Shown: positions 1,379 to 60,213 of the stretch, piece after piece
Numbering within the stretch: the first letter of the stretch is position 1
Layout of the letters: the number at the start of each line of letters is the position of its first letter
Assembly (NCBI GenBank): GCA_965205015.1
Contig: OZ242029.1
Coordinates: forward strand, 2,688,001 to 2,752,000
Reading direction: 5' to 3'
Origin: Candidatus Poribacteria bacterium
Lineage (GTDB): Bacteria > Poribacteria > WGA-4E > WGA-3G
DNA: 64,000 bases
The notes under the pieces: model-generated
Seen by the model: the letters and a program-made list of their open reading frames with translations, nothing else
Told to the model about the DNA's origin: nothing
Database searches by the model: none
Translations under genes and position numbers: made by a program

Positions 1379-2167
1379 CTATTGCCGAGCTTTAATGCTG
1401 CCCCATGTGGTTGCAAGCTTACCAGAAGGCTCAACAGGCAGGAGTGTTCGCATTCCTTTTTCCATCAATTCCTTTATATCTTCTGCTTCCAGCACAGAAG
1501 CGAAAATTGCGACCTCATAGAGTATACCATCGAGGGTCTCTGAAGTGTTGTTGGTCCAACCACCGATGTTGACATCCGTGTCATTCCGAGGTGCCGGTTT
1601 ACCCATCCCGCCAACAGAAGCGATTTCCTCAGCATTTTCGTAGATCTTGATGGTATCCTTTGCGTCGTAAGTTGCGGTCATGTACAACCATTCATCTTTC
1701 TTCACTTGACTTTGATTCCAGGCACCTTTCCAACCGCCGTTCGCGAAGTAAGCTTCCCAACCGGTGCCGGAGCTGCTTGTCCTGAAGGCGTAATTTGCCA
1801 CTGTACCCGCCGCGGGTCTTTTGCCGAGAATATGTCCATACCCGTTCTCGGATTTGTTGACATACACCCATGAAGTGATTGACCACGCCTTTTCCAGATA
1901 CATACTGTCGGAATCTGCGATGATAACCCGATCATTTTGTCCATTTAAGCTTAGAGCGGCGGGACCCTTATTTGGTCCTTTGACCCATTTTCCGCCCTGA
2001 AGTTCACCGTGATTCTCGTTTCCAGAGATATCCTCGATTTGATCGCCTTTCCCTTCGTCGAGTAGCCAAATGCCTCTTGCGGTTTCAAAATCTATCTCTG
2101 CATAGGTTGGGACTGCGAAGGTCAAACCGATGGTGATAATCGCTAAGCAAACTATAACGGATTTCAT
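1379..2167 (-). CDS. Secreted LamG/concanavalin A-like domain protein (paralogue A1; its RBS is interrupted by the structured element)
   Basis: Signal peptide, W-L-L-D-E-G...D-I-S-G-N-E-N-H-G LamG-like pattern, C-terminal VEPSGKLATTWGSIK; highly similar to 2671..3453. Confidence 0.85.
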   Translation of the reverse strand: MKSVIVCLAIITIGLTFAVPTYAEIDFETARGIWLLDEGKGDQIEDISGNENHGELQGGKWVKGPNKGPAALSLNGQNDRVIIADSDSMYLEKAWSITSWVYVNKSENGYGHILGKRPAAGTVANYAFRTSSSGTGWEAYFANGGWKGAWNQSQVKKDEWLYMTATYDAKDTIKIYENAEEIASVGGMGKPAPRNDTDVNIGGWTNNTSETLDGILYEVAIFASVLEAEDIKELMEKGMRTLLPVEPSGKLATTWGSIKARQ

Positions 2168-2173
2168 GTTTAC

Positions 2174-2574
2174 CTGTTCTTAAAAACCTATGTTTTTCCG
2201 AAGAAATCCATAAATTTCTAAAGGGTTCCTAACCCCTGTTACGGCACCCGTCAGTGTCTAAGCCTACCTATACCCAACTGTGCCTGCCACGTTAGCAGAA
2301 GATATAGGCGGCTTGCATATCCCAAGAAACACGGGATATGGACGAACCGTCAAAGTTAGCACCGAAATGCTAACGCCTTTTTCTCGCCCCGTACTCTATT
2401 TTCCAGGCTCATCAACGGGTATTTGAACCTGTCGGGCAGCCCTACGTGGTTCTTGTAGGTTGCATTGGTTTTTGCGACTGCCAGAGGCGGTATGTGGGAA
2501 TCGAACCCACCGAGAATGCCTACATTTACCGCGAAACATAGAAAAAACAAGAAAAACAACTATGTAGGAATGAC
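2174..2574 (-). ncRNA. ~400-nt structured non-coding element (copy E1) between SD and start codon
   Basis: Homologous to 23789..24204 (57/60 identical at the 5' end, covarying hairpins throughout); absent from the equivalent site of paralogue 2671..3453. Confidence 0.8.
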
Positions 2575-2670
2575 TCCTAAAGGTTGAATTTACCGTTAAA
2601 GAACATTTACGTCGGTGTGTCCCTTTAGTTGTTCAGGTGACCCACCGACTGCGCCCAATTTGTTCAACGC

Positions 2671-3453
2671 TTATTGAGATTTGATGTCTGCCCATGTCGT
2701 TGCGAGTTTGCCAGAAGGTTCAACAGGAGTGACTAAGGACGGGAGTCCCTCGTCCATCAGGGTGTTTACGTCTTCTTCTGACAGCGCGACACTAAAAAGC
2801 GCGACCTCAGAAAGCATACCGTCAAGGGTCTCTGTGGTATTGTTGGTCCAACCGCCGATGTTGGTGTCAGTATCATTCCGGGGTGCCGGTCCACCAAGAC
2901 CGCCAACAGAACCGATTTCAGCTCCGTTTTCGTAGATTTTGATGGTGTCTTCTCCATCATAAGTTGCGGTCATGTACAACCATTCATCTTTCTTGACGGT
3001 TCCTTGATTCCAAGCCCCTTTCCAGCCGCCTCGCGAGTAATATGCTTCCCAGCCGGTACCATTGCCGCTTGTCCTGAAGGCGTAATTTGCCACCGTCCCA
3101 GATGCGGGTCTTTTGCCGAGAATATGTCCAAAACCGTTCTCGGTGCTATTCACGAAAACCCATGCAGTGATTGTCCACGCCTTCTCCAGATACAAACTAT
3201 CGGAGTCAGCAATGATAACCCGATCATCTTGTCCGTTCAAACTTAGGGCAGGCCCATTCGGTCCGTCGACCCATTCTCCGCCCTGAAGTTCACCGTGATT
3301 TTCGTTTCCAGACATATCGTTGATCATATTGCCTTCGCCTTCATCGAGTAACCAAATGCCTCGTGCGGTTCCAAGGTCGATCTCCGCATAGGTCTGGACT
3401 GTGAAGGTTAGACTGATGATAAGAATCGCTAAGCGAATTATAGTGGATTTCAT
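2671..3453 (-). CDS. Secreted LamG-like domain protein (paralogue A2; intact RBS TTAGGAGGTAAAATG)
   Basis: Tandem paralogue of 1379..2167; C-terminal VEPSGKLATTWADIK. Confidence 0.85.
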   Translation of the reverse strand: MKSTIIRLAILIISLTFTVQTYAEIDLGTARGIWLLDEGEGNMINDMSGNENHGELQGGEWVDGPNGPALSLNGQDDRVIIADSDSLYLEKAWTITAWVFVNSTENGFGHILGKRPASGTVANYAFRTSGNGTGWEAYYSRGGWKGAWNQGTVKKDEWLYMTATYDGEDTIKIYENGAEIGSVGGLGGPAPRNDTDTNIGGWTNNTTETLDGMLSEVALFSVALSEEDVNTLMDEGLPSLVTPVEPSGKLATTWADIKSQ

Positions 3454-3497
3454 TTTACCTCCTAAAGGTTGAATGTGCCGTTAAGGGATGTTTTGAA

Positions 3498-3584
3498 TGG
3501 GCAGATACAAGACCTGCCCCTACAAGTGGGCAGATACAAGACCTACCCCTACAAGTGGGCAGATACAAGACCTGCCCCTACAAG
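3498..3584. repeat. 3 x 29-bp tandem palindromic repeat (GTAG-type REP-like)
   Basis: TGGGCAGATACAAGACCTGCCCCTACAAG three times head-to-tail with one mismatch in copy 2; GGGCAG/CTGCCC stem followed by CTAC. A related single copy lies near 26087-26113. Confidence 0.85.
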
Positions 3585-23685: not shown

Positions 23686-23788
23686 TTGACATATTTGGGT
23701 GCTTTCCTATATCATATTCCTATGCGTTAAAACGCGGGTCTCTTTTTAAGATTCGCACAGTGCGTTAATTTTGTTTTAGACATGAGGG
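23686..23788 (+). promoter_or_regulatory. Sigma70 promoter (TTGACA-17-TATCAT) and leader, duplicated upstream of the next paralogue (~25118-25220)
   Basis: TTGACA tatttgggtgctttcct ATATCA/TATCAT region; near-identical block GTTAAAACGCGGGTC...AGACATGAGG in both copies. Confidence 0.65.
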
Positions 23789-24204
23789 GTCGTTCCTAAA
23801 TAGTTGTTTTTCTTGCTTTTTCTATGTTTCGCGGTAAATGTAGGCATTTTGAGGGGTTCAAGTCCCCTCTCCCGCATCCCAGTAGCATCGTGCGATACCC
23901 AAGCACACCCGACGAAAACCACGTCGGTTCTACTGTGAGGGGTTCATACACGAGTGAGACGAACCCTGACACTGTGAGGACACTCGGAAGTAAAATAAGG
24001 CGTTAGCATTTCGGTGTTAACTTTGTGGGTTACACCATACCTCGCGCAACCTTGAGGTATGCAAGCCGCGTATCGCTTCTGACGACGTATCAGACGACAC
24101 TGGTGATATTCAGGCTTAGAGGCTGTCGAGTCTCGTCATAAGGGGGTAGGATCCCCGTAGAAATCTGTGGGTTTAAATAGAAATACATAGATTTTTACTA
24201 ACAG
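23789..24204 (+). ncRNA. ~416-nt structured non-coding element (copy E2) between SD and start codon
   Basis: Homologue of 2174..2574; absent from the duplicated leader of 25229..26023. Confidence 0.8.
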
Positions 24205-24212
24205 ATATATTC

Positions 24213-25004
24213 ATGCGTTTAATGTTGTATTTATTTGCCGTTTCACTCTTAATGGTAGGCAGTGCGCTTACCACACACGCTGTGGTCCAAGACGACGGCT
24301 TAATCCTTTATTTCAGTTTCGATGACGCAAAAAACGGAACAATTATGGATGAAACCGGTGGCGGAAATGATGGTGTCGTTGATGGCGCAGAGATTGCTAC
24401 CGACGAAGTCGTCTACGGCAAGGGATCCTTGTTATGTGATGACGGTAATGACAGTGTGTCGGTTGATACTTTTAAAGAATTAGAGGAATATACAGACAAT
24501 TCCTATCTTTTCTGGCTCAATTTCACCGACGTGAATTCCGGGGCGTGGAATCAAATCATAGCAAAAAAAGCACCCGGTTCTGACCGTTCTCCGGGGATAT
24601 GGACTTGTAACCGCGCCAGTTTGCATATCCACTATCGGTTCAATCCGGGTAACCAAGGCACACTCTGTGCGGGTCCCGAGGGAGAAGATGACGAATTTGC
24701 AGTCGGGGACTGGCATCACATTGCAGGTGTCAAAGAGGGTGACCAGTTGAAGTTCTATGTTGATGGAGAAGTCGTTGTGGAGCAGAGTGTTCCGGCGAGT
24801 CACGCGCAAGGTGCGGAGAAACTCTATATCGGTAAAACGGGTTATAACGCTGCGCTCTTCTACATTGATGACCTCTATGTCTATGACAGAGCACTCAGTG
24901 CCGATGAAGTAGAAAATATCATGGAGGGGGGGCTTCTCACGCCTGTGGAACCTCAGGACAAACTCGCCACGACGTGGGGACACCTGAAAACACGCCGTGA
25001 TTAA
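24213..25004 (+). CDS. Secreted LamG-like domain protein (paralogue B1; RBS interrupted by the element)
   Basis: Signal peptide; motifs LILYFSFD, WHHIAGV, IDDLYVYDRALS; C-terminal VEPQDKLATTWGHLK. Confidence 0.87.
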   Translation: MRLMLYLFAVSLLMVGSALTTHAVVQDDGLILYFSFDDAKNGTIMDETGGGNDGVVDGAEIATDEVVYGKGSLLCDDGNDSVSVDTFKELEEYTDNSYLFWLNFTDVNSGAWNQIIAKKAPGSDRSPGIWTCNRASLHIHYRFNPGNQGTLCAGPEGEDDEFAVGDWHHIAGVKEGDQLKFYVDGEVVVEQSVPASHAQGAEKLYIGKTGYNAALFYIDDLYVYDRALSADEVENIMEGGLLTPVEPQDKLATTWGHLKTRRD

Positions 25005-25228
25005 TTTCGTTCTTCCCTGAAACAACTTGTAGGGACGGCTTCTATGTCGTCCCACATCTATTTCCCCATTTGTGTCTGCCTATTTCTCGAATACACACCC
25101 CACCGCACATATTTTCCTTGACATCTTTAAGTTTTTTCGTGTATCATATTCTCACGAGTTAAAACGCGGGTCCTTTTTAAAGACTCACACAGTATGTTAA
25201 CTTTGTTTCAGACATGAGGAGGTTACTC

Positions 25229-26023
25229 ATGCGTTCAGTTATGTATGTACTCGCCGTTGCCCTATTAGTCATAGGCAGCGCACTCTCCACAGATGCCGCA
25301 AAGGTCGAAGATAAGGGGTTAATCCTTTACTTCAGTTTCGATGAAGCAAAAGGCGGAAATCTTGAAGATGGAACCGGTGGCGGAAATAACGGTGAAATCG
25401 TTGATGGGGCGAAGATTGTCAAGGATGAAGTTGTCCATGGCAAAGGTTCAATGTTATTTGCCAAGCCGGGGGACAGTGTGCAGGTCGATTCCTTCAAAGA
25501 ATTAGAAGATTATACGGACAACTCCTATCTCTTCTGGCTCAACTTTACGGATCCAAACTCCGGTGGCTGGGATCAGATTATTGCAAAAAAAGCTCCCGGC
25601 TCTGACCGTTCACCCGGTATATGGACCTGTAACCGTGTACCTCTGTATATCCACTACCGGTTTAATCCCGGTAACGCCGGCACGCATTGTGCAGGTCCCG
25701 ATGGAGAAAACGACACATTTGATGAGAATAAGTGGTATCACATTGCAGGGGTCAAAGAGGATGCCCAGTTGATGTTCTATGTCGATGGAAAAGAGGTTGT
25801 GAAGATAGCCGTTCCGAAGGATCACGCACAAGGTGCGGAGAAACTTTACATCGGTAAAACGGGTTATAACGCTGCGAAGTTTTACATTGACGATCTCTAC
25901 GTTTACGACAGAGCCCTGAGTGCGAAAGAGGTTGTAAACGTTATGGAGGGTGGACTACTTCCTGTTGAACCTCAAGACAAGCTCGCCTCTACGTGGGGAC
26001 AACTGAAAAGAAATCGTGACTAA
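25229..26023 (+). CDS. Secreted LamG-like domain protein (paralogue B2; intact RBS GAGGAGGTTACTCATG)
   Basis: Tandem paralogue of 24213..25004; C-terminal VEPQDKLASTWGQLK. Confidence 0.87.
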   Translation: MRSVMYVLAVALLVIGSALSTDAAKVEDKGLILYFSFDEAKGGNLEDGTGGGNNGEIVDGAKIVKDEVVHGKGSMLFAKPGDSVQVDSFKELEDYTDNSYLFWLNFTDPNSGGWDQIIAKKAPGSDRSPGIWTCNRVPLYIHYRFNPGNAGTHCAGPDGENDTFDENKWYHIAGVKEDAQLMFYVDGKEVVKIAVPKDHAQGAEKLYIGKTGYNAAKFYIDDLYVYDRALSAKEVVNVMEGGLLPVEPQDKLASTWGQLKRNRD

Positions 26024-28385: not shown

Positions 28386-29186
28386 ATGGAAATTATCATT
28401 CAACCGACTTATGCGCAACTTGTGGCGGTTTCAGCGGACATTATCCGAGACGCGCTTATAAAAAAGCCGAATCTCGTTTTGGGACTGGCTACGGGTAGCA
28501 CGCCGATCGGGCTTTATGAAGCCTTGGCACAGATGCACAAGAGAGAGGGACTCGATTTCTCAGCCGTGACGACTTTTAACTTAGATGAGTACGTCGGGAT
28601 TCCACCGAACCATCCGCATAGTTATCACACTTTCATGGAGACCCACTTTTTTAGCGCTGTTAATATCTCTGCCGAGAATCGCCATATTCCACAGAGTACG
28701 GCTGTCGCACACGAGGAATTTTGTGAGCAGTACGAAACCGCAATTGTAAACGCAGGTGGCATCGACATCCAAGTGCTCGGGATTGGAAAAGATGGGCACA
28801 TCGGTTTCAATGAACCGAGTTCATCTTTGGGATCTCGGACTCGCATCAAAACTTTGACGCAGAGTACGCTCGAGGCAAACGCGCCGCATTTCGGAGGGAC
28901 CGTGGCTGCAGTGCCCAAAATGGCGATTACGATGGGAGTAGGCACGATCATGGAAGCGCGACAGTGTCTGCTGCTGGCAAGTGGGGCATCGAAAGCGGAA
29001 GCGATTGCCCACGCGGTGGAGGGACCTATCACAGCGGAAGTACCAGCATCGGTGTTACAGATGCATCCCCGAGCGGTTGTCATCGTCGACGAAGAAGCGG
29101 CTTTGCAATTGAAACGCATAGATTATTATAAACAGGTTTATGCGAACAAGCAGAAACTGTTGTCTCAGGCATCAGCCGTCAGTTAA
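28386..29186 (+). CDS. nagB: Glucosamine-6-phosphate deaminase
   Basis: Motifs LGLATGSTP, TFNLDEYVG, LGIGKDGHIGFNEP, AITMGVGTI. Confidence 0.95.
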   Translation: MEIIIQPTYAQLVAVSADIIRDALIKKPNLVLGLATGSTPIGLYEALAQMHKREGLDFSAVTTFNLDEYVGIPPNHPHSYHTFMETHFFSAVNISAENRHIPQSTAVAHEEFCEQYETAIVNAGGIDIQVLGIGKDGHIGFNEPSSSLGSRTRIKTLTQSTLEANAPHFGGTVAAVPKMAITMGVGTIMEARQCLLLASGASKAEAIAHAVEGPITAEVPASVLQMHPRAVVIVDEEAALQLKRIDYYKQVYANKQKLLSQASAVS

Positions 29187-44680: not shown

Positions 44681-46255
44681 TCAATTCCTTTTCTCTTTCA
44701 AGTGGAATATTGTTTCGGAATATGCTGATTCTCGATTCTTTTCTGTCCGATTCAAAACAGGACGCTTGTGTTGATGGATGATACACATCCCCGCCTTTTC
44801 TGCGATAGTTGGATACATATTAAACTTATCGTTTGCAACGATAAAAACATCGTAATCATCAGTTAGAAACCGCTTACAGTTCTTGAAAACTTCTGCTACG
44901 CCGTGAATGTATGATTCTCTCGCCTCGCGTCCTTTTCCTCTAAACAAGGGACCAATTTCTAATTCATCTAACCTTTTGAAACCAAAGAGATCATAGGCAT
45001 AAGCGTGCTGCTCATGGTAGTTGATAAGTCCAACATAGGGAGGACTTGTAAAGATACCTTTAATTCTTTGTTTTTGGGCAATCTCTGCGAATTGTGGATC
45101 TATGTGTTTCAACATCGTGAGGATGTCAATCGTTCGTGAATCACCCGTTAGACAGTGTTGAAAGGTGTCCGTTTTTAATTTACCGAACTCCACCCATCGT
45201 TGTACGCTATCTCTACAGTATCGCTCCCACCAGCTGAGGATTGAAAAGAGCGGTTTGCAGACTTTTCCATGTTTTCGGCAATAATATGTTGTTGTCACGG
45301 GTTTCCGTAGCGTGCCTAAATCTGCGTGTGTCGTCGCTCGGCACGAGCGAATCGTCCGGCTTAATATTAACATCAAGGCGTTTTGTATTGAAGGGTCTTC
45401 TACTCTTCTAATCAAACTATAGACGAGATCAATCTCGGCTCTAACTCCCGGAAGATACCACCGCTTCATAAAGCGAGTGGAATCAACTGGCATCTGTATC
45501 TCAATTTGGTACTCGGCAACAAGTTTATGATAGGTTTCTAAAAAAGCGGCTTCCTTCTCAGCGCCGTACTGCTTTTGATTGATTTCACCTGCTCTGACTC
45601 GGCGTTTAAAAGAAATTGGAAAGTATTGATTATTGAAGTCTGTAAGTTTTTCTGCGAGTTTAGCCTCAAATTCGGCTATTCCAGATGTAGCGACAAAATT
45701 TTTGAGGGCTGCCGTGATTTTCTGGCTTTCCTCATACAAACGCGTCAAATTATATGCTGTCACCTTGGCGTTGCCAATAAAAGCATTAAACGCCGAAACA
45801 TCAATACCAATTGCGTGCATCCCAAGTTCGTTGGCTTGAACCAAAGTCGTCCCACTCCCACAGAACGGATCAAGCACAATATCACCCGGTTGAAAATAGA
45901 CATCCCGTTTAAATTTGTCGGTATGAGCGCCCAAAAAATAGGCTACGAGTTGCGGGATGAATTTGCCTTTATAGGGATGCAACCGGTGAACATGCTTTGT
46001 TGTTTCTGCCTCTTTGACTTTTTCAAAGGATAGCGTCCAGTTCAGGTCATCACCCAGTTCGTCTTTCCACTGTGTTTCACGGTGGTTTAGACTATAATAC
46101 TTCTCAAGACTTTGCACCGGAATCAACGTTGACCCTTTATCTGCAACAGATTCAATCCTGCCATACTGGATTAAATATGTAATATTCGCAGGCGTAACGT
46201 TTTTATTTAGGTGCTTTGAAGCCCATTGGCTTGCCTGTTTAAGTGTAAAAAGCAT
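44681..46255 (-). CDS. Type II DNA methyltransferase (probably N4-cytosine)
   Basis: Motifs HPYKGKFIPQL, DPFCGSGTT, TSPPY. Confidence 0.9.
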   Translation of the reverse strand: MLFTLKQASQWASKHLNKNVTPANITYLIQYGRIESVADKGSTLIPVQSLEKYYSLNHRETQWKDELGDDLNWTLSFEKVKEAETTKHVHRLHPYKGKFIPQLVAYFLGAHTDKFKRDVYFQPGDIVLDPFCGSGTTLVQANELGMHAIGIDVSAFNAFIGNAKVTAYNLTRLYEESQKITAALKNFVATSGIAEFEAKLAEKLTDFNNQYFPISFKRRVRAGEINQKQYGAEKEAAFLETYHKLVAEYQIEIQMPVDSTRFMKRWYLPGVRAEIDLVYSLIRRVEDPSIQNALMLILSRTIRSCRATTHADLGTLRKPVTTTYYCRKHGKVCKPLFSILSWWERYCRDSVQRWVEFGKLKTDTFQHCLTGDSRTIDILTMLKHIDPQFAEIAQKQRIKGIFTSPPYVGLINYHEQHAYAYDLFGFKRLDELEIGPLFRGKGREARESYIHGVAEVFKNCKRFLTDDYDVFIVANDKFNMYPTIAEKAGMCIIHQHKRPVLNRTEKNRESAYSETIFHLKEKRN

Positions 46256-54952: not shown

Positions 54953-56422
54953 ATGAACATTCGATTTGCACCCAACACGCTATATTACGGCGATTGCCTT
55001 GATATTATGGCTGACTTTGAGGACAAGTGTATCGACCTGATCTGCCTTGACCCGCCATTTAACTCAAATGAGAAATATAACAAGGTTTTCAAGGATTCGG
55101 GACTCCTTATTGATCCACAAATCAAAGCGTTTGATGATGTCTGGCTCTGGGACAACACGTCCGCAGAACGCGTTGAGCGCGTCAAAAACGCAGTTGCCAA
55201 CCCTGCATCAAAGGTGATTGCTGGGTTTGAAGGATTCATTCCGCAAAGTAAGATGTTGTCCTACACCTCCTACATGGCAGAACGCCTCTTTATGATGCAC
55301 CGCATACTCAGGGATACAGGAAGCATCTACCTACACTGCGATCCCTACGCCAGCCACTACCTCAAACTCATAATGGATGCGATCTTCGGTGAGAAGAACT
55401 ACCGGAATGAGATTGTATGGCATTATCGCAGGTGGACAGCAGGAAACAGAAACTTTCAACGGATGCATGATGTTCTTTTCCGATATACAAAATCAGATGA
55501 TTTCAAATTCAATGTACAATATGAACCCTATGGCGATTGGATAAAGAAGGATTATTCATACACAGATAACGACGGTAGAAGATGGCGTTGGCACACTGTT
55601 AAAGGAAGAAGATACAAAGTCTATCTTGAAGATGAAAATAGAGGAGTTAAATTAAATGATGTATGGCAGATACCGCATTTAGGATCAACTGCCAATGAAC
55701 GGCTCGGCTACCCAACCCAAAAACCGATCGCACTCTACGAACGCATCATCAAAGCGTCCTCTAACCCCGGCGACCACGTGTTAGACCCTTTCGCGGGCTG
55801 TGGCACAACCATAGAAGCTGCAAAGAAAAACGGGAGGGATGTTATCGGTATAGACATCCTGCCCTTCGCACTCCGTTTGATAAACCGCTACCGCCTTGCC
55901 CCTAACGGTATAACGCCGCTTCCGATCGAAGGTGTGCCTGTTGATATGCACACCACCCGTCAACTTGTGAGCACCGCTCCGTTCAAATTCCAGGACTGGG
56001 CGATCTCACTCATAGATGGCTTGGCATCCAACCCACAGAAAGTTGGCGATGATGGTATTGACGGATTTGGGGTGTTCCTTAACACGCCAGATAATATGGA
56101 TCGCAAAGCGATTATCGTTCAGGTTACAGGTGCCTCCGGCTCACAGAAGGCGAAGTTTGATAGACTTCACGCGAATATCCGAAACGAGAACGCCGCGATG
56201 GGAATCTTAATCACACTCGACGCGCAGATCGCACAACACAATTGGAAACACACCTTAGACCCTATAAGGATGGGTGAAACCACTTACGCTCCTATCCAAT
56301 GTTTTTCTATTGAAGAATACTACCGAAACAACGAGCGATGGGATCGGATATTGACCCTCCCCCCACTGGCGAATCCATGGACTGGGAAGCACATGCAGCA
56401 AAAGATTTTATTTGATGCGTAA
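54953..56422 (+). CDS. N6-adenine DNA methyltransferase (beta class) fused to an Mrr-like C-terminal domain
   Basis: LDPPF, then YPTQKP and DPFAGCGTT; C-terminal FQDWA...GDDGIDG...IVQV. Confidence 0.88.
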   Translation: MNIRFAPNTLYYGDCLDIMADFEDKCIDLICLDPPFNSNEKYNKVFKDSGLLIDPQIKAFDDVWLWDNTSAERVERVKNAVANPASKVIAGFEGFIPQSKMLSYTSYMAERLFMMHRILRDTGSIYLHCDPYASHYLKLIMDAIFGEKNYRNEIVWHYRRWTAGNRNFQRMHDVLFRYTKSDDFKFNVQYEPYGDWIKKDYSYTDNDGRRWRWHTVKGRRYKVYLEDENRGVKLNDVWQIPHLGSTANERLGYPTQKPIALYERIIKASSNPGDHVLDPFAGCGTTIEAAKKNGRDVIGIDILPFALRLINRYRLAPNGITPLPIEGVPVDMHTTRQLVSTAPFKFQDWAISLIDGLASNPQKVGDDGIDGFGVFLNTPDNMDRKAIIVQVTGASGSQKAKFDRLHANIRNENAAMGILITLDAQIAQHNWKHTLDPIRMGETTYAPIQCFSIEEYYRNNERWDRILTLPPLANPWTGKHMQQKILFDA

Positions 56423-58804: not shown

Positions 58805-60213
58805 CTAAAGTTTGGACAATTTTAAAGAATTAAGATGTTTGAAAGCAGAAAAGCAGGTATCCTTTCATAAACATACCACTGTTTTGAAAGGAAGGCAAAA
58901 ATGCCCCTGCTTCTCCACTTAGAAAGTATTGTATCGGATTTTCGTCATTTGTTCAACTCCCAAAACTTTGCGCTTTTTCAAGCATTTATTTTTGGGTTTA
59001 TGACTCAACCGCCTGGAGGCAGCCTGACGCACCTGTATCAGTCGAGTGGATCCGCGACACGCTATTGGTCGTTTCCGAAGTTTCTTTCCCGGGGCAAATG
59101 GGATACCGATGCGGTTGCTGCGTGCCTGATGAAAAGGCTCCAGGGCGTGTTTGCCGACTGGGTTTACGTCTATGATGCCACCAAAGCCTTGAAGACGGGT
59201 AAAACCCAATGGGGTTTACATTTTTTCCGCAACTTCAGTTATCACGGTAAACATCGCGTGAATCAATCAAAGTTTCACTTCGGACACGAGTTTGGGGCAT
59301 TAGGTTTACTCTGCGAGACAGCGGCAGATTGGTTGCTGTTTCCGGTCTGGGTGAAACTCATTGCACCTCAGACGCTCCGGGACAAAGGTGATGCGGTGTT
59401 GAAACGTATCTGTTCAAAGCTCCCCCGGGGGTTGATCCTCTTTGATAGAGGGTTCTGCCGCCGAAAAGTCTTTGAAATGCTCTTGGAACTCGGACATCAT
59501 CTGTTGTGTCGTGCGAAGTCAAATGCGGTGTTTTATCGTTTACCGAAACGTCCGAAGCGCCCCCAGCGCGGGCGTCCGAAGAAATATGGAGACCGTTTGA
59601 ACATCCAACGCTTACGGTATCAAGACGTTTGCATCCTGGAAAAAACGTATCAGGTCGCCTCAGAGGTCGTTCGGACGAAAATGTGTCCGACAGACGTCCG
59701 ACTCGTCGTGATACGCACCCGAGTCAAACCCTCAAAACCGTATCGGTATTTCTGTGTCTTTACAACAGATATGACCTTGGAGCTCCCGAAGATCGTTGAA
59801 TACTACCGGCAGAGGTGGCAGATAGAAACAGCGTTTCGAGATGTCAAGCAGCATTTCGGATTTGATGCCTATCGGGTCAAGTCTCGCAAAAGCATCAATC
59901 GCTTCGTGCAGCTGAGTTTCGTCGCAGCGTCTCTGACGAAGTTGGTCTTCTTGAAGTTTGGGTCTCGGTATCCCTCGGATCGCGTGAGCGTCAAAGAGGT
60001 CTGCGAGCATCTCGGGATTCATTGGTATCATCCGAAGCACTTGACCCAAGGGTTACGGGTCGCTTATTTACAGTCGCACCTCAGAGCGTTGGAATATTCT
60101 GCGAGTTCCCAAGAAGAGACCAACTCACAGAATATTCATCCCATATCTGAACACGATACCACGCTACCTTTCGACAAAGCAGCTTGAAACTTACAATATT
60201 GTCCAAACTTTAG
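58805..60213 (+). mobile_element. Complete insertion sequence (IS4-superfamily/IS701-like)
   Basis: 16-bp TIR CTAAAGTTTGGACAAT / ATTGTCCAAACTTTAG; 9-bp direct repeat TAAACTTTA at 58796-58804 and 60214-60222. Confidence 0.9.
58901..60187 (+). CDS. DDE transposase
   Basis: VYDAT (D), LFDRGF (D), YRQRWQIETAFRDVKQHFG (YREK-type E). Confidence 0.92.
   Translation: MPLLLHLESIVSDFRHLFNSQNFALFQAFIFGFMTQPPGGSLTHLYQSSGSATRYWSFPKFLSRGKWDTDAVAACLMKRLQGVFADWVYVYDATKALKTGKTQWGLHFFRNFSYHGKHRVNQSKFHFGHEFGALGLLCETAADWLLFPVWVKLIAPQTLRDKGDAVLKRICSKLPRGLILFDRGFCRRKVFEMLLELGHHLLCRAKSNAVFYRLPKRPKRPQRGRPKKYGDRLNIQRLRYQDVCILEKTYQVASEVVRTKMCPTDVRLVVIRTRVKPSKPYRYFCVFTTDMTLELPKIVEYYRQRWQIETAFRDVKQHFGFDAYRVKSRKSINRFVQLSFVAASLTKLVFLKFGSRYPSDRVSVKEVCEHLGIHWYHPKHLTQGLRVAYLQSHLRALEYSASSQEETNSQNIHPISEHDTTLPFDKAA

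Follow-up and report, generated by a model that had tools for sequence, protein, structure and literature searches.

A structured RNA element between the Shine-Dalgarno motif and the start codon of LamG genes in Candidatus Poribacteria

Introduction

What kind of sequence settles between the Shine-Dalgarno (SD) motif and the start codon of a bacterial gene, and how does the gene tolerate it? The question is raised by a 64,000-nucleotide (nt) stretch of a Candidatus Poribacteria bacterium genome (assembly GCA_965205015.1, contig OZ242029.1, positions 2,688,001 to 2,752,000; hereafter the window, in whose own numbering all positions are given). In it, an element that we call E1 splits the ribosome-binding site (RBS) of a LamG gene, and a homologue, E2, occupies the same place in front of another LamG gene. 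An earlier note on the window had pointed out both copies and proposed three mechanisms: an intron, a riboswitch-like bridge between SD and AUG, or an RBS-targeting mobile RNA. Our tentative answer is that both copies represent a non-autonomous, site-specific type of insertion element that forms a multi-copy family in sponge-associated Poribacteria and whose functional part is its sense-strand RNA.

Results

Two LamG genes are interrupted at the same point of the ribosome-binding site

E1 is a 400-nt noncoding insert (2174-2573) on the minus strand, which is also the sense of its RNA; its boundary can equally be placed up to 2 nt further left. On this strand the locus reads ...TTTAGGAG, then the element, starting with TCATTCC and ending with AAGAACAG, then GTAAACATG; that is, the leader of LamG gene B consists of TTTAGGAG and GTAAAC-ATG with the insert (2573 down to 2174) between them. 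Contigs from sequencing runs, aligned to the locus, independently returned "skips 400, both 2" at this place. The earlier description of an element of about 400 nt separating SD from ATG agrees with the sequence, as does its location, but its length is 400 nt instead of the 401 nt implied by 2174-2574.

The homologue on the other strand, likewise reported before, is E2, which sits between GAGGGG and ATATATTC-ATG of LamG gene C. The proteins of genes C and B belong to different LamG subfamilies and align over their last 45 residues only. At both loci the insertion point lies after AGGAG and before G/A-T-A, and the element has the orientation of its host gene. Each host gene has a tandem paralogue with an empty site (75% protein identity between A and B, 73% between C and D). 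The leader of gene A reads ...TTTAGGAGGTAAAATG, with the RBS part TTTAGGAGGTAAA-ATG, and that of gene D reads GACATGAGGAGGTTACTCATG, with an intact GAGGAGG-TTACTC-ATG. The leaders of A and B align on both sides of the E1 insertion point, and those of C and D on both sides of the E2 insertion point, which makes two independent filled/empty pairs at the same RBS position. The empty AGGAGG-N-ATG leader of gene A had been recognized in the earlier note, whereas that of gene D, beside E2, had been overlooked; together, the two pairs at the same AGGAG^G support its view that the element is RBS-linked and mobile.

Exact insertion at AGGAG^G, seen twice and in unrelated leaders, favours an insertion element over an inherited leader; a precise loss that rebuilt a perfect RBS twice would be far less likely than insertion. 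Terminal inverted repeats are missing: neither in E1 nor in E2 are the two ends linked by an inverted pair. There is no clear target-site duplication either, only a 2-nt AG ambiguity at the E1 locus alone. The hallmarks of miniature inverted-repeat transposable elements, namely terminal inverted repeats together with a target-site duplication, are thus missing from both copies.

The copies are 70.9% identical over 419 alignment columns and were the only ones found in the window by nhmmer and blastn. Their first 60 nt contain three differences (57/60 identical), and two conserved words each occur exactly twice in the window, two matches being reached in 0 of 100 shuffles; the 5' block and the shared words listed earlier are accordingly present in both copies. 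Reading-frame comparison bore out the statement that no open reading frame (ORF) is conserved between E1 and E2. A candidate peptide, MFRGKCRH..., is kept only where the DNA block is kept, and its remainder is unrelated; the translated open frame of E2 matched no called protein in a set of 5.8 billion proteins. A candidate third copy, the nhmmer match at 29103-29142 (E 0.049), falls within a coding sequence and was rejected as a chance match. All comparisons rest on two full copies plus a few 30-nt fragments.

Table 1 Features of the two element copies and their host loci. Element nt are counted from 2573 in E1.
Feature	Position	Strand	Basis or remark
E1	2174-2573	-	Boundary reading, run contigs, alignment to E2
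AGGAG, SD-like motif of LamG gene B	2574-2578	-	Abuts E1 5' end; can pair with UUCCU, element nt 4-8
Near-invariant U-rich 5' block, nt 1-59	2515-2573	-	57/60 identical to E2; includes CUAUGU, a possible partner of ACAUAG near the 3' end
tRNA-like module, nt 42-87	2487-2532	-	GCGGUA/UACCGC acceptor-like stem, 3-bp mini-hairpin, T-arm 2494-2510, loop UUCGAUU
Three-way junction, nt 92-139	2435-2482	-	Closing stem and two hairpins, all of different sequence in E2
Hairpin 4, nt 143-186	2388-2431	-	Loop pairs with downstream strand, H-type pseudoknot
Invariant 8-bp hairpin, UUCG loop, nt 200-219	2355-2374	-	Conserved words, RNAalifold
3' domain, nt 223-352	2222-2351	-	Hairpins 5, 6, two-tier 7, hpX, 8
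Hairpin 9 (nt 360-387), conserved U5 tract, AACAG end	2174-2214	-	Minimum free energy folds, RNAalifold
E2, 415-nt homologue of E1	23790-24204	+	Sequence comparison
GAGGGG, SD-like motif	23784-23789	+	Abuts E2 5' end
tRNA-like module of E2	23831-23875	+	T-arm 23851-23869, loop UUCAAGU
Promoter-like site TTGACA-18-TATCAT, 11/12	23686-23715	+	About 75 nt upstream of E2
LamG gene B, 262 amino acids, intact, Laminin_G_3	1379-2167	-	ATG 2167-2165, 6 nt after E1
LamG gene A, tandem paralogue of B, empty site	2671-3453	-	AGGAGG 3458-3463, ATG 3453
LamG gene C, 263 amino acids, intact	24213-25004	+	ATG 8 nt after E2
LamG gene D, tandem paralogue of C, empty site	25229-26023	+	GAGGAGG 25216-25222, ATG 25229

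The fold is under selection on the gene-sense strand

Folded separately, the two copies gave minimum free energy (MFE) z-scores of -4.81 and -2.71, a stability reached by 0 and 2 of 100 shuffles, respectively, and their independent MFE folds yielded the same series of helices. RNAalifold placed 112 pairs in 19 helices, 20 of these pairs being changed on both sides; when partners were slid by 1-3 columns, only 0-3 doubly changed pairs were left. As this structure is derived from the two sequences under test, the comparison is circular, and we therefore ran a separate projection test, in which the MFE structure of one copy was carried over via the MAFFT alignment and scored in the other copy against 5000 shuffles. 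In the 3' half, the E2 structure scored in E1 kept 19 of 21 changed pairs (shuffle mean 9.0; 0/5000 shuffles reached 19), and the E1 structure scored in E2 kept 19 of 27, a value reached by 11/5000 shuffles. Over the whole element the result was weaker (32/54 kept, 14/5000 shuffles; 29/68 kept, 1649/5000 shuffles) because MAFFT misaligns the variable 5' half. The antisense strand showed no excess, with 20/60 and 23/67 pairs kept, both under the shuffle means.

E1 and E2, which are 29% diverged, thus show compensatory substitutions in at least 10 helices, and the fold is under selection on the gene-sense strand. This evolution of the sense strand argues for the transcript as the selected product. 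The claim of a selected, complex RNA fold is supported by the sense-only compensatory changes and the z-scores, and all eight helix pairs that had been listed for it are present, recovered by the independent MFE folds of both copies. A manual helix table (81 pairs: 43 same, 7 one-sided, 31 two-sided, 0 broken) has hand-chosen registers and was not relied on. The terminator scan flagged no site on the sense strand; an antisense candidate at the UUCG hairpin was discarded, with 1 site found against 1.0 expected.

The RNA comprises a near-invariant 5' block, a tRNA-like module, a three-way junction and a series of hairpins (Table 1). The 3' domain is the best-aligned part and holds most of the compensatory pairs; in it, hairpin 7 is closed by AAGCC/GGCUU, and the small hairpin hpX lies at 2241-2251 in E1. 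Folding tools exclude pseudoknots, and the strands of the hairpin 4 pseudoknot were read directly: CCCGU/ACGGG in E1 and CGAGUG/CACUCG in E2 are complementary in both copies, as had been proposed. Two further contacts of the earlier note stand as possible pairings, but both are invariant and so carry no covariation support, namely the loop contact GAACC/GGUUC, possible in both copies, and the closing stem CTATGT..ACATAG. The 5' block has three alternative pairings, namely a local hairpin, the acceptor-like stem, or CUAUGU with the ACAUAG close to the 3' end, and an invariant block offers no means of choosing among them. Complementarity between the loop of the 2445-2455 hairpin and that of hairpin 6 (10/11 in E1) is lost in E2 and was dropped as a candidate contact.

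A tRNA-like module of about 45 nt

The acceptor/T-arm module of about 45 nt in E1 and E2 is new here. Aligned over its full length, the Rfam mascRNA/menRNA model (RF01684) scores 18.9 bits in E1 and 20.1 bits in E2, so far under the threshold of 42.5 that this indicates resemblance and not membership. The T-arms match transfer-messenger RNA (tmRNA) models over 17 nt, and the tmRNA_permuted model gave 10.5 and 9.4 bits against a threshold of 47. With mascRNA/menRNA and the tRNA-like domain of tmRNA, the module has in common an acceptor stem and a T-arm without an anticodon arm; unlike the host of E1 and E2, however, mascRNA is eukaryotic, and the two copies have neither CCA nor a tag reading frame. 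ARAGORN detected no tRNA or tmRNA gene in the window.

Over nt 65-90 (in a 401-nt query), E1 is identical at 26/26 positions to a tRNA-His(GTG) gene carried by plasmids of Latilactobacillus curvatus; the match covers the 3' end of that gene, with T-arm, acceptor strand and discriminator C. Corresponding segments of E1 and E2 match tRNA genes of several kinds in phages and plasmids. As a side observation, the 11-mer that opens the T-arm of E2 (23850-23860) is repeated exactly at the start of hairpin 4 (23936-23946), and hairpin 4 of E1 likewise starts with the T-loop-like GGTTCAAAT; these repeats hint at an internal duplication of a T-arm-like unit.

Relatives and element-free contigs in sponge sequencing runs

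The E1 locus was partly present in 20 of 22 listed sequencing runs, most of them labelled sponge metagenomes and six of them RNA libraries. We used assembled contigs and judged habitat without the small-share runs X9-X13, X15 and X18-X20. At 88% likeness, contigs were compared from the RNA runs X14, X16 and X17 (two studies) and from the DNA run X5 (a third study). In the DNA run, E1 and its flanks are present on a 556-nt contig, with 8 differences and 1 gap. Loose ends of contigs leave E1 at the borders of conserved blocks and continue into other family members, several of them E2-like. They add a third T-arm (stem GGGGG/CCCCU, loop UUCAAUU), from a copy with AAGG just before its 5' end, and, from two further copies, a third and a fourth version of hairpin 6, each of these stems being self-complementary. 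Judged from these contigs, the family is diverse in sponge-associated communities.

An exact skip of 2174-2573 occurred in one contig of the DNA run X5 (depth 10.8) and one of the RNA run X17 (depth 109), with no such contig in the RNA runs X14 and X16. The shorter side of these contigs measures only 24-25 nt, and skips found at 88% likeness are often paralogue-derived; with a short side under 30 nt, a paralogue origin may apply here too. A junction of the kind that the earlier note had suggested looking for is thus seen as an exact 400-nt skip in a contig of one of three RNA runs, but its presence in DNA means that it is no proof of splicing. Taken at face value, the DNA contig indicates that an element-free form of the site exists as DNA.

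Other irregularities were set aside. In X14 and X16 contig depth is far lower over the 5' half (2378-2608) than over the 3' half, but contig depth cannot rank parts of the element, and contigs that stop near 2382 continue into E2-like sequence, so no processing site is demonstrated. The joints 2175->2673, 2107->3453 and 2197->2357, as well as go-backs, look like rearrangements between paralogues or strains. Over the LamG genes, contig depth in RNA libraries reaches hundreds, which is not a reliable measure of expression.

Searches of wider collections were mostly unsuccessful in finding more copies. A 16-mer scan of genome contigs hit at least 119 loci, none of which (0/119) showed similarity beyond the seed, itself too short; the five genomes reached are not Poribacteria, their CarB being 58-72% identical compared with 92-95% for Poribacteria proteins. 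The CarB of the window shows this 92-95% identity to at least 120 proteins, and the 8 of these whose entries bear a name are all Candidatus Poribacteria, which points to a Poribacteria host. A 24-nt match in a Prevotella contig was attributed to chance, as was the single match of a 20-mer scan of metagenome contigs. Scans of viral contigs gave 0 matches, plasmids only the tRNA-His 3'-end match, and phages none for the full element.

Comparison with known RNA families and mobile elements

At gathering thresholds, Rfam 15 recognized only a PyrR site in the window and nothing in E1 or E2. Even at E <= 10 the comparison with Rfam proposed in the earlier note matched no characterized family in either copy and returned scraps only, with no group I or group II intron, HEARO, riboswitch or self-cleaving ribozyme, and no match to the T-box model. 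The suggested resemblance to raiA or Poribacteria-1 motifs is rejected on the same basis. OLE, ROOL, GOLLD and raiA, large bacterial noncoding RNAs whose functions are obscure or have only lately begun to emerge and which are all Rfam families, resemble the element in size, in complexity and in having been found by comparative analysis in uncultivated bacteria; none of them matches it, and they are free-standing genes, unlike an element inside an RBS. A full-text literature search, its coverage lying outside the supplementary tables of omega-RNAs and IStrons, found no description of such an element.

The closest parallels come from transposons with guide RNAs. Insertion at a fixed short motif without inverted repeats or duplication, and with an exact empty site, is of the type of the insertion sequences IS200/IS605. 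In the account given in PMC10055086, the omega-RNA scaffold of IscB elements abuts a guide that lies outside the transposon and needs transcription from outside, the elements show an orientation bias towards transcribed sites, and gene-less PATE-like derivatives are described. As far as that account goes, IscB/TnpB omega-RNA elements (RF02033, HEARO) and E1/E2 thus share a large structured transposon-borne RNA whose scaffold abuts flanking DNA, a short fixed insertion motif with no inverted repeats or duplication and with exact excision, and transcription entering from the host gene, together with orientation bias and gene-less copies. They differ in that the motif of E1/E2 is G-rich (AGGAG, or TACCT on the other strand) and theirs is AT-rich, in the tRNA-like module, the structure of all 400 nt and the weak terminal hairpins of E1/E2, and in the lack of any nuclease or Y1 transposase gene in the 64-kb window.

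IStrons, which combine a group I intron with IS200/605 or IS607, are likewise mobile structured RNAs in the sense of the host gene, made harmless by their own RNA. The survey in PMC4227781 includes IStrons without an ORF, and those it covers are reported only from Firmicutes and Fusobacteria, with 58% intragenic. Unlike these, E1 and E2 have no Rfam group I core and no U before the 5' boundary, and their site is the SD-AUG spacer; the lack of a group I match is joined by the lack of an ORF in the element. Structure between SD and AUG also occurs in the split RBSs of T4 genes 25 and 38, where, as PMC3014915 reports, a hairpin cuts spacings of 22 and 27 nt to 5 and 11 nt. Those structures, however, are single hairpins over 22-27 nt and fixed parts of their genes, with no presence/absence.

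Host genes and genomic context

The two interrupted genes have intact ORFs and, against their paralogues, ratios of nonsynonymous to synonymous substitution rates (dN/dS) of 0.21 and 0.18, at dS of 0.72 and 0.97. The promoter-like site upstream of E2 is also kept upstream of the empty-site paralogue D, which places E2 in the 5' untranslated region (UTR). An SD motif precedes 11 of 39 naive start codons in the window (background 12%), so SD-independent initiation is common in this organism, and losing a nearby SD need not silence a gene. Independently of the element, a near-identical A-rich stretch (A/T-AATTAAAAA) stands directly before the ATG, without an SD, in 4 of the 39 genes (Fe-ADH-like, thiI, carB and carA; starts 17544, 21859, 35724 and 36958) and may be a lineage-specific initiation motif. 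The motif PVEP..KLATTWG.[IL]K, in the last 45 residues of the products of genes A-D, is common to both LamG subfamilies and may serve as a sorting or anchoring signal.

Several repeats and hairpins surround the LamG loci. Upstream of gene A, 3498-3584 holds three tandem copies (96% matches) of a 29-nt unit with a GGGCAG...CTGCCC palindrome, and a similar palindrome preceded by CTTGTAG follows gene C (about 25018-25050); they possibly form a repetitive extragenic palindromic (REP)-like repeat family. Between gene A and the gene B leader, at 2597-2649 (-), a 7-bp GC-rich stem (GTCGGTG...CACCGAC) with a weak, chance-level match to TLS-PK5 may be an intergenic processing or termination hairpin.

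The PyrR binding site (RF00515, 39003-39141 (-), 57.3 bits, above threshold) lies upstream of pyrR-like and carbamoyl-phosphate synthase genes and is an ordinary attenuator. The only transposase among the 39 window ORFs is an unrelated DDE transposase (DDE_Tnp_1/DDE_5) at 58901-60187 (+), which has no sequence kinship to the element; a derivation of the element from this DDE transposon was rejected for lack of sequence similarity. Together with two N6_N4 DNA methylase genes (44681-46255 (-) and 54953-56422 (+)), the transposase possibly marks the region as mobile or rich in restriction-modification genes.

Discussion

None of the defining features of group I or group II introns was found. The reading that we tentatively prefer, a family of non-autonomous insertion elements with a functional sense RNA, can be put as a sequence of steps. 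The element would be inserted as DNA at the SD core by an enzyme encoded elsewhere in the genome, and its RNA would be made by read-through from the host promoter. This RNA would serve the element's own life cycle, either as a ribozyme or, by analogy with the omega-RNA of IscB and TnpB, by guiding or scaffolding a transposon-associated nuclease or recombinase. The interrupted LamG gene would be tolerated, given a paralogue next door and an organism in which many genes start without an SD. A transposon-borne guide RNA is the closest working model, with a geometry that the element fits.

Several observations weigh against this preferred reading. E1 and E2 failed every sequence-level membership test for guide-RNA transposons that we ran; among the families in Rfam 15, neither HEARO nor any other omega-RNA model matched them at E <= 10. 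Pfam searches of the 39 window ORFs revealed no reverse transcriptase, IscB, TnpB, Y1 transposase or recombinase. The hairpins near both ends share 13 invariant columns of 45, are weak as DNA (-2.7 to -9.4 kcal/mol) and only loosely alike. No complementarity or identity of the element to its own flanks is common to both copies. The term site-specific rests on two insertion sites plus one fragment with AAGG as its 5' neighbour. The leader of gene A differs from the E1 flank at 1 of 16 nt before the site and is nevertheless empty, which speaks against guide-directed homing being active at present. The two hosts are both LamG genes, which leaves room for a gene-specific function instead. To our knowledge, finally, guide scaffolds get by with less structure than an element folded over all of its 400 nt.

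Alternatively, the element may be a new type of intron whose removal, by self-splicing or by a host enzyme, rebuilds a working RBS, joining AGGAG to GUAAAC-AUG at E1 and GAGGGG to AUAUAUUC-AUG at E2, and which spread to SDs through pairing of its 5' UUCCU with AGGAG/AGGGG. Much in the architecture suits such an intron: both copies (2/2) lie in sense orientation within a transcribed leader, the SD is intact in both filled leaders and would stand 6 and 8 nt from AUG after removal, element nt 4-8 pair with the SD in both copies, and some 15 helices plus a pseudoknot in 400 nt amount to ribozyme-like complexity. Both interrupted genes are under purifying selection, and a position in the leader would spare a folding ribozyme the traffic of ribosomes. 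A terminal G of the group I type, from the AACAG end of both copies, appears under one of three boundary placements. Yet under these three placements the preceding base is G, A or G and never U, and the 5' end is at best GUCAU/GUCGU, not the GUGYG of group II, with ACAG at the 3' end and no domain V seen. The SD-UUCCU hairpin has a loop of 3 nt, which leaves no room for a P1/P10-type guide, and no group I or II model matched at E <= 10. The skip contig of the RNA run X17 would fit removal from RNA, but the same skip in DNA and its absence from the two other RNA runs, along with its short side, count against this. Attractive as it is in site tolerance, orientation, retained SD and spacing and complexity, we regard the intron as unlikely.

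We hold a cis-acting module for translation or regulation, retained in the mRNA, to be similarly improbable. Such a module could bridge SD and AUG through a compact fold in which the 5' part (UAGUUGUU, CUAUGU) and the 3' part (ACAUAG, AACAG) of the element pair to close it, could itself recruit the ribosome, or could act as a riboswitch-like attenuator in which the long-range closing stem competes with hairpin 9 and the U5 tract. The element does sit directly at the start codon in both copies, in front of host genes that are kept intact, and has what a riboswitch would show, a conserved structured 5' UTR domain with covariation. ACAUAG has two mutually exclusive pairings, with CUAUGU or within hairpin 9 before the conserved U5, RNAalifold draws an end-to-end helix in both copies, and the tRNA-like part could contact the ribosome or tRNA-binding factors. 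A split RBS with a hairpin is, moreover, an established mechanism (PMC3014915). However, the end-to-end helices are invariant and hence lack covariation support, and the candidates for an expression platform, the SD-UUCCU hairpin and the alternative ACAUAG pairings, do not vary between copies either. Even with the best closing helix, about 11 nt stay outside on the 5' side and about 3 nt on the 3' side, and hairpin 9 is AU-rich, with no sense-strand terminator flagged. A regulatory leader belonging to the host also leaves two independent exact insertions unexplained. We know of no riboswitch with a length of 400 nt, with a position between SD and AUG or with presence in one paralogue and absence from another.

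That E1 and E2 are inert relics, a once-mobile and partly tRNA-derived sequence that knocked down one copy in each of two redundant gene pairs, would accord with the adjacent paralogues, the identity of part of E1 to a tRNA gene 3' end and the absence of a partner enzyme nearby in the window, but is very unlikely in view of compensatory substitutions in at least 10 helices between copies 29% diverged, a near-invariant 59-nt block amid this divergence, further self-complementary helix variants in other samples and intact host ORFs. The remaining probability we assign to something not thought of.

A bolder proposal, which we consider possible but rather doubtful, would place the element in a previously unknown class of mobile RNA, catalytic or ribosome-engaging, that homes to Shine-Dalgarno sequences. 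In one form this would be a new intron type of the SD-AUG spacer that rebuilds the RBS on removal, the spacer being, on this proposal, the one place in a bacterial mRNA where an RNA can fold free of ribosomes. In the other it would be a portable initiation module with a tRNA-like domain that replaces the displaced SD, a cassette resembling an internal ribosome entry site.

As a tool, the element could provide a portable module for translation control or an RNA-guided one. We know of no natural element that inserts between SD and start codon and leaves the gene intact. If our interpretation is correct, a new large structured RNA of ribozyme-like complexity, from an uncultivated phylum of sponge symbionts, would join a short bacterial list, and any of the mechanisms considered would be new biology, be it removal from RNA, bridging of SD and AUG, recruitment of the ribosome, or a guide-RNA transposon that exploits highly transcribed leaders.

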